Below the pieces are notes generated by a model. The model made no database searches. It had not been told where the DNA came from and was given only the letters and a program-made list of their open reading frames with translations. Below, piece after piece: positions 37,055 through 37,733 of a DNA stretch of 64,000 nt (position 1 is the stretch's first letter; each line of letters starts with the position of its first letter). Where the stretch lies: the IMG/VR virus record IMGVR_UViG_3300017700_000931, positions 32,001-96,000 of that record; one strand, given 5' to 3'. The position numbers were made by a program, and so were the translations under genes. Source of the DNA: a virus. Its lineage: Duplodnaviria; Caudoviricetes.

Positions 37055-37733
37055 TTATTTTAAAAGCTGAATTTTTCCTCTTAGGATATCTTTCAATTTG
37101 GCAGTTTTATTAGTAATATGGTCAACTACGATATCATCCTTTACACGATATGTTCTACGTTTATCACCACGATTACCAACCCCAATCTGATTTCTACGTT
37201 CTTTAACCTCTTCTTGGTCATGTCCGGTTTTATAAAACGTATTAACACGTAGTGTTATTTCCTTAAAGGCTGCTTCTTTATTTTTATGTTGGTCTCGGCC
37301 ATCACGAACCACTCTGATACCTGTTGCATTATGTGTCATGATAACACACGAATCAGTAGTATTTTTATGTTGACCGCCACTTCCAGTTCCTCTAGTAAAT
37401 TCAATACGGACTTCATCGTGTCTGATTTCGACATCCTTATATTGTGGTTTATCTAAAATTGCTACTGTGATTGATGAAGTTTGAATACGACCCTTCTTTT
37501 CTGTTGGAGGGATACGTTGCCACCTATGGTTGCCTACTTCATTGTTAAATATTTTTTTTACACCAGACCCGCTAAAGGCATAGACAGACAAATCCTTCTC
37601 TGTCTTCAACTAACATTCAGTTAATGTTGTTAATCTTCGCTGTTTTGATGTAGATATCTCTCATATCTCCCACCAATAACTTAGCATCTTTGCCACCTTC
37701 GGCATCTCTGATTTCTAAATAAATCGTTTCCAT
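37055..37733 (-). CDS. RF1-type peptide chain release factor lacking domain 1, interrupted by UGA (codon 39) and a +1 frameshift at CUU-UAG-C
   Basis: Frame 0: LEIRDAEGGKDAKLL..; +1 frame: SGSGV..HRWQRIPPTEKKGRIQTS (PxT), GSGGQHKN (GGQ), RRTY. Confidence 0.85.

Follow-up and report, generated by a model that had tools for sequence, protein, structure and literature searches.

The only gene with an RF-1 domain in this phage genome is an interrupted one, and the in-frame stop at its codon 39, a TGA, is real, conserved and under selection. We think it probable that this TGA is a programmed stop which, on comparison with related coding sequences, would act as a near-cognate readthrough gate in a gene of RF1 type; fourteen codons further on lies a candidate +1 frameshift site at a TAG. 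To our knowledge, release-factor genes that sense their own product by recoding are known in bacteria only for RF2, and there only as a frameshift, and in the literature searched we came upon no account of phage release-factor genes with in-frame stops. The gene belongs to a large family of phage RF1-type genes of standard code in which one, two or three fixed positions hold an in-frame UGA or UAG codon, and in which lineages have interchanged in-frame stops with CUU-stop-C shift sites, in convergence with the release-factor gene of Mimivirus. The window analysed here is a stretch of 64,000 nucleotides that spans bases 32001-96000 of the phage genome, which is 362,532 bp long, has a G+C content of 32.7% and carries direct terminal repeats; positions are those of the window unless given as genome positions.

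Structure of the interrupted gene

Table 1. Features of the release-factor region and of the RNA genes discussed, in window coordinates
Feature	Position	Strand	Remarks
Long tRNA-Cys(GCA) gene, 82-87 nt	1330-1416	minus	also in L069, L072, L073 and L074
Rfam-only tRNA-like gene	23696-23772	minus	missed by ARAGORN at default settings
tRNA-Trp(CCA)-like gene, 91 nt	25831-25921	minus	first of a tandem pair
tRNA-Trp(CCA)-like gene, 80 nt	25930-26009	minus	second of the tandem pair
Rfam-only tRNA-like gene	26066-26136	minus	missed by ARAGORN at default settings
Second, ordinary tRNA-Cys gene	34817-34888
Segment 3, 172 codons + TAA	37055-37573	minus	+1 frame; PPT motif, GGQ, RF-1 domain
CTT TAG C, candidate second gate	37571-37577	minus	+1 shift would join segment 2 to segment 3
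Segment 2, 14 codons (ATG ... TGC CTT)	37575-37616	minus	same frame as segment 1; MLVEDREGFVCLCL
In-frame TGA, codon 39 (column A)	37617-37619	minus	context AAC TGA A; candidate readthrough gate
Segment 1, codons 1-38	37620-37733	minus	start ATG at 37733-37731; PCRF 101-132
10-bp hairpin and T run	37766-37789	minus	directly before the release-factor gene, 30 nt upstream of its start
Full-length tmRNA gene	41052-41434	minus	Rfam score 89.7 bits; release-factor gene 3.3 kb away

The minus-strand reading puts codon 39 at 37619-37617, where the first-pass annotation had seen an in-frame TGA; its full in-frame context is AAC TGA ATG, with an ATG directly after the stop. The further claim that the N-terminal release-factor segment runs on in frame past the TGA is borne out by Pfam and by the alignment to RF1, which are collinear through the region: PCRF positions 156-194 and the RF-1 domain follow on segment 3 (78 bits for the RF-1 domain, 37 bits for PCRF). 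With segments 1 and 2 in one frame and segment 3, which ends in TAA at 37057-37055, in the +1 frame, a full-length protein does require both the UGA bypass and the UAG shift that had been called for. We denote as P0001 the 225-residue concept translation in which the TGA is rendered as W and the four-letter step TAGC as S; its residues 4-224 align with residues 111-340 of E. coli RF1 (E 2e-38, 135 bits). The join had also been described as free of gaps against RF1, and here the collinearity holds but the exactness does not, the HMMER alignment having three 2-residue gaps in the stretch around the stops.

P0001 scores 135 bits against RF1 chains versus 73 bits against RF2 chains. Lacking domain 1, it falls far short of the cut-offs of the NCBIfam prfA models (400 and 423), with scores of 187 and 178 bits, and with the PrfH model (TIGR03072) it reaches 74.8 bits against a cut-off of 166.65. 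The GGQ at residues 119-121 is invariant in the family, as are the PPT motif and the E-x-x-G-R after it; the loop is of RF1 length, and the Gln of the RF1 SQGR is replaced by K, R or N. An orthodox prfA would have domain 1, about 360 residues and a score above the equivalog cut-off, none of which is found here, where the alignment begins at E. coli RF1 residue 111. On these features, the gene is predicted to encode an RF1-type release factor without domain 1 and is not an orthodox prfA.

In an AlphaFold2 model of P0001 (mean pLDDT 83, at least 90 over residues 1-90), residues 2-10 form a strand and 15-34 a helix, packed into domain 2, residue 39 opens the strand 38-45, and residue 52 lies within the strand 48-55. 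Three residues of segment 1, G13, G14 and D16 in the long helix, are invariant across the family. By position offset against T. thermophilus RF1, to whose residue 109 query residue 6 aligns, they would presumably correspond to Gly116 and Glu119 of RF1, at the tip of helix alpha-5. In solved termination complexes, these two RF1 residues read U1 of the stop codon.

The hairpin upstream of the gene is preceded by the motif CTATTCTGAA, which is conserved in relatives of the same clade. We considered a UGA-ended upstream ORF (MDKKKKRF) as an attenuator and rejected it: relatives keep the hairpin and CTATTCTGAA but not the upstream ORF, so the hairpin looks like the 3' end of an upstream structured RNA rather than an attenuator.

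The release-factor gene is present in three independent Logan assemblies of this phage or near strains. One copy is identical over all 679 bases; the other two, at 98.1% identity, retain the TGA as well as the CTT TAG C. Runs SRR10520202, ERR12082678 and ERR12082741 come from samples in which this phage occurs. All of the differences in these copies (13/13) are synonymous third-position changes, which implies strict purifying selection in a lineage with exactly this architecture.

Conservation of the stops among related phages

Homolog DNA was read from huge-phage records and IMG/VR contigs, at 40-75% protein identity, and dozens of related phages keep in-frame stops in their RF1-type gene. 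The stops recur in three columns within 14 codons, which we call A (codon 39), B (five codons later) and C (13 codons later). Column A is TGA in our gene and in L004, L011, L012, L015-L017, L019, L020, L028, L044, L054, L090 and others, whose proteins are 60-75% identical and whose genomes or contigs use code 11 where checked; the suspicion, raised in the first-pass annotation, that the TGA might be peculiar to this genome is thereby set aside. In L009, L010, L033, L057 and L063, column A is TGT or TGC, and elsewhere it is a codon for a hydrophobic residue (V, F, Y or L). Most relatives have TGA at column C; L021 and L024 have TAG there, and L054 has CGA. Genes of the frameshift type have TGY at column C, followed by CTT TAG C (our gene, L009, L010, L033, L050 and L057) or, in L025, by CTT TGA C. 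Two GC-rich relatives, L005 and L061, carry an SD-like sequence with CTT TGA C or CTT TAG G beside column A. The exact combination of a TGA at column A with the TAG frameshift was observed only in this phage and its near strains. Uninterrupted members of the family also exist, namely L003 and P0084, the latter translating by table 11.

Among full-length predicted proteins in the database clusters, W stands at column A in 33/47 and at column C in 42/47, and 3/47 have none; P0082 and P0107 have no W at columns A, B or C. For the two clusters whose DNA we read, the protein is obtained only with TGA taken as W, the gene callers having used code 4 on short contigs. The family thus accounts for a pattern of mis-annotation, either as fragments of 160-186 residues or as code-4 proteins with spurious Trp, and it carries the warning that a single TGA-interrupted gene on a short contig can mislead the code choice of gene callers.

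The nature and setting of the stops are strongly biased. The 45 in-frame stops, from 32 unique genes, comprise 43 TGA, two TAG and no TAA, and the next base is C in 25 of them and A in 20, never T or G; for genuine stops of the phage genome, T is next in 50%. The Leu codon after column C is always CTA, CTG or CTC, even though TTA and TTG supply 69% of the genome's Leu codons. Where the DNA was read, stops lost from columns A and C have repeatedly become TGT or TGC (Cys) and never TGG. At column C, TGA and TAG are exchanged between L018 and L023 on the one hand and L021 on the other, while the PPT loop stays the same. Built from the C-terminal 162 columns, a maximum-likelihood tree puts our gene beside L028, which has TGA at both A and C (support 89/92), within a clade of 13 rows (93/97) in which TGA is the common state at column A. 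The simplest history would be that our TGA was inherited and that the readthrough stop at column C was replaced by TGC and the UAG shift site.

Across relatives, the 33 codons before column A show dN of 0.10-0.36 with dS above 1 or saturated, and the 11 scorable codons between columns A and C give dN/dS of 0.07-0.68 for the pairs in which dS can be estimated; the C-terminal part has dN of 0.2 versus relatives, with dS saturated. At the level of codon substitution, this comparison shows the segments flanking the TGA to be, in all likelihood, translated in one frame. Only here does ATG follow the column A stop; the relatives read have ATA, CTG, CTA, AGA or AAA as that codon, Met being a conservative change from Ile or Leu, and none of the relatives shows a conserved start codon after columns A, B or C.

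The release-factor gene of P0084 lies beside a phage IF3 gene. At L088:2390-3681, in a more distant phage, an uninterrupted 226-residue RF1-type gene comes directly after a phage-encoded IF3 gene. An IMG/VR contig of 362,018 bp (L026/L043) holds a second, partial release-factor copy covering residues 44-171, about 3 kb from the complete gene, and in L066 and L067 an internal deletion removes the PPT and GGQ regions.

Genetic code, tRNA genes and RNA structure

Under code 11 the phage genome is densely filled with long ORFs, of up to 793 codons within the window. The 284 ORFs of at least 150 codons end in TAA (226), TGA (35, or 12%) or TAG (23), and Trp is encoded by TGG, which makes up 944 of 80,507 codons (1.2%). 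With Trp supplied by TGG and TGA terminating 12% of the long ORFs, the genome is not one of code 4. Both code 4 and recoding of blocks of genes were ruled out by the ORF statistics over all 362 kb together with the Trp codon use: neither frequent internal TGA, nor a shift of Trp to TGA, nor a cognate suppressor tRNA is found. In 49-kb samples, three huge-phage relatives likewise use code 11 in bulk, with ORFs of up to 1,583 codons, and code 4 was rejected for them as well. A genome-wide codon-usage scan for further TGA-interrupted genes was swamped by antisense-frame artefacts.

ARAGORN finds 57 tRNA genes in the phage genome. Neither ARAGORN, run at default and relaxed settings on the whole genome, nor Rfam, run on the tRNA-rich 96 kb, gave a UCA-anticodon tRNA. 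A "tRNA-SeC(tca)" of the relative G004 was dropped as a candidate suppressor, being a mis-registered tRNA-Glu: it has a 93% homolog in a tRNA-Glu of G003, and its loop read as CUUUCAA gives a better stem. This extra tRNA-Glu-like gene with the loop CUUUCAA also occurs in our phage (genome 31191-31263, L097:11191-11263) and at L080:2635-2710 and L081:1501-1576; ARAGORN reads it one base off, as "tRNA-SeC(tca)", in one relative, and it can mislead a search for suppressors.

For Trp, the phage genome has only the two tandem tRNAs, which have A1-U72, G73, U11:A24 and enlarged variable arms; those of the relatives are ordinary, at 73-74 nt. On the Rfam tRNA-Sec model the tandem genes score 33-44 bits, below the cut-off of 47, and we rejected the idea that these CCA-anticodon tRNAs are Sec-like, as ARAGORN shows a 7-bp acceptor stem and tRNA-Trp-like molecules with G73 and long variable arms. 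At least four of the five related phage genomes searched share with this phage a conserved long tRNA-Cys(GCA), which is the best tRNA-Sec-model match in G001, G002 and G005, at 35-45 bits and below the cut-off. Of the two tRNA-like genes seen by Rfam only, one has a UCG (Arg) anticodon loop and the other is a degenerate His-like (GUG) gene. Outside the window, at genome 24795-24890 (L097:4795-4890) on the minus strand, a match to the Rfam bacterial small SRP RNA (40.9 bits, gathering score 40) may be a phage-encoded 4.5S-like RNA.

RNAalifold over 19 homologs gave no conserved pairs around the stops, and hence no SECIS-like or stimulatory hairpin at them.

A near-cognate readthrough gate as the favoured explanation

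With A or C as the next base, the stops lie in conserved weak contexts, which is why we favour a near-cognate readthrough that competes with RF2. In E. coli, termination at UGA is weakest when C or A follows, and Trp is the textbook residue for near-cognate UGA readthrough. Most ribosomes would then terminate at the TGA and release a peptide of 38 residues, and a minority would insert an amino acid by near-cognate decoding and continue. Since no UCA-anticodon tRNA was found, the adaptor would likely be tRNA-Trp(CCA), of the host or of the phage. Fourteen codons on, the readthrough ribosomes would have to shift +1 at CUU-UAG-C. Two such serial events might keep the output of the factor very low, reduced by orders of magnitude, and would tie it to poor termination, at UGA and then at UAG, in the infected cell. 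For UGA-A without a stimulatory structure, readthrough of a few per cent at most is expected, and its product with an unstimulated frameshift would be a tiny yield.

The decoding agent, the inserted residue and the regulatory purpose, which may be a throttle or a sensor of RF2 activity, are what we infer from this arrangement. The finding of Cys and never TGG at lost stops is not what simple insertion of Trp would predict, and the two unusual tRNA-Trp genes (80 and 91 nt) leave room for a dedicated decoder. As to purpose, the first-pass annotation had viewed the two stops as an AND gate on host RF1 and RF2, which would fit the pattern. The exchange of TGA and TAG at one gate column without a change in the PPT loop suggests, however, that a requirement for a leaky stop other than UAA may fit better than the sensing of a particular release factor. 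We can also entertain, as a tentative and on balance doubtful extension, the serial stops being a viral termination homeostat, in which the UGA gates would read RF2 activity and the UAG gate RF1 activity, the phage RF1-type factor would be made only when host termination fails, for example after shut-off, and lineages would have rewired the same two or three codons between readthrough and frameshift sensors.

Alternative explanations

The TGA might instead be a timed sense codon rather than a leaky stop, read efficiently by a phage tRNA that lacks the standard UCA anticodon and keyed to the expression of that tRNA, the candidates being the two tandem tRNA-Trp(CCA) or the long tRNA-Cys(GCA). 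We consider such dedicated decoding unlikely, but it deserves attention because the only Trp tRNAs of this phage are of unusual length with enlarged variable arms when those of relatives are ordinary, because Cys codons appear where relatives have lost a stop and the long tRNA-Cys is conserved in the relatives searched, and because the many relatives that need two readthroughs would hardly manage by leakiness alone. The tandem tRNA-Trp genes also share the U11:A24 pair of the Hirsh UGA suppressor, which may not be diagnostic, since tRNA-Trp of B. subtilis has the same pair. Against a dedicated decoder, the relatives with two TGA codons have ordinary tRNA-Trp genes, and the TGA-free relatives G001, G002 and G005 also carry the long tRNA-Cys, so that decoder and stop do not co-occur. 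The strict A or C after the stops and the avoidance of TAA, moreover, signal competition with release factors, which would be needless with an efficient suppressor. Selenocysteine, or a templated cysteine, at the UGA would likewise make sense of TGT or TGC at column A in the five relatives named above and of TGY at column C in all frameshift-type genes, a Cys codon in place of a UGA stop being the classic Sec/Cys pattern. We regard it as very improbable: no conserved hairpin, SECIS or other, follows any of the stops, no tRNA-Sec(UCA) turned up in the searches described, the stops occupy three positions 5-13 codons apart, and some relatives have TAG in place of TGA at column C.

A further possibility is that the working protein is a truncated one of about 184-186 residues, made by restart at the ATG of TGAATG or by a start at the +1-frame TTG at 37609, with the 38-codon ORF as a leader. 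The ATG does abut the TGA, gene callers annotate a 184-residue ORF from the TTG, and purifying selection on the C-terminal part cannot distinguish a truncated from a full-length reading. Reinitiation, which the first-pass annotation had left standing, nevertheless becomes unlikely once the ATG is seen not to be conserved after the TGA, and no other start codon is conserved after the stops of columns A, B or C. Codons 1-38 are moreover under purifying selection (seen in the 33 codons before column A) and include the invariant G13, G14 and D16 that match Gly116 and Glu119 of RF1, and a truncated product would lack the confidently modelled strand and helix of residues 1-34 in domain 2; we accordingly rate a truncated product as improbable. 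Hardly any credence, finally, can be given to a sequencing error, to a pseudogene in decay or to a genome-wide reading of TGA as Trp. Having two interruptions within 15 codons does resemble decay, and database gene callers did translate relatives with code 4, but the strain differences are all synonymous, no catalytic motif is broken, divergent homologs share the stops, and code 11 prevails in bulk in this genome and the three huge-phage relatives.

Comparison with known recoding systems

A programmed stop read through at low frequency, as we favour for codon 39, invites comparison with several systems. In more than 12,000 bacterial genomes no programmed recoding was found in prfA, and TAG occurred in none of 8,164 prfB motifs (0/8,164; Prince et al. 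2025, PMC12421855). The +1 frameshift of prfB itself (SD-N3-CUU-UGA-C) is alike in that a release-factor gene is completed upon poor internal termination, and L005 and L061, the two GC-rich relatives, even carry the motif beside column A. Codon 39 differs in that its TGA follows AAC with the frame unchanged and is not a shift site; the CUU-stop-C arrangement with a +1 shift is found at 37577-37571 instead. Since the stop is UGA and the predicted factor has an RF1-type loop, self-recognition as in prfB is not expected.

In phage Q-beta, a leaky UGA at the end of the coat gene is read through by tRNA-Trp to give A1. Our gene would resemble it as a phage gene that depends on UGA being decoded at a low level by a near-cognate tRNA, with no suppressor tRNA involved. 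Readthrough in Q-beta adds a C-terminal extension to a complete protein, however, whereas here the stop lies inside a domain, so that only the readthrough product could fold.

The recoded gut phages reassign TGA or TAG across blocks of late genes and carry a cognate suppressor tRNA, with their RF1 or RF2 genes themselves in standard code (Borges et al., bioRxiv 10.1101/2021.08.26.457843). Their "code-change modules" share with our case a phage-encoded RF1 or RF2 and the use of in-frame stops for timing; here, in contrast, the genome is of standard code and the release-factor gene is the interrupted one.

The closest published analogue, as far as sequence anatomy goes, appears to be the release-factor gene of Mimivirus. 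The class-I release-factor genes Mimivirus R726 and Megavirus mg280 combine readthrough of UGA-C with a +1 shift at CUU-UAG-C, which expression in E. coli demonstrated; the authors described this pairing as unique to these viruses, and proposed Trp as the inserted residue, via a viral tRNA-Trp whose D arm is Hirsh-like (Jeudy et al. 2012, PMC3521657). The layout of our gene has the features of such a doubly recoded release-factor gene: a viral gene for a termination factor, interrupted first by a UGA in weak context and then by CUU-UAG-C, the same order as in Mimivirus. The Mimivirus genes, in contrast, are of eRF1 type and belong to viruses of eukaryotes, while ours is predicted to be of bacterial RF1 type without domain 1 and comes from phages, and most of the phage relatives use two or three readthrough positions, not a frameshift. 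New here are the columns of readthrough stops, the contexts in which these stand and the way they interchange with shift sites, which together offer a natural series of readthrough and frameshift cassettes for studying how termination efficiency is sensed.
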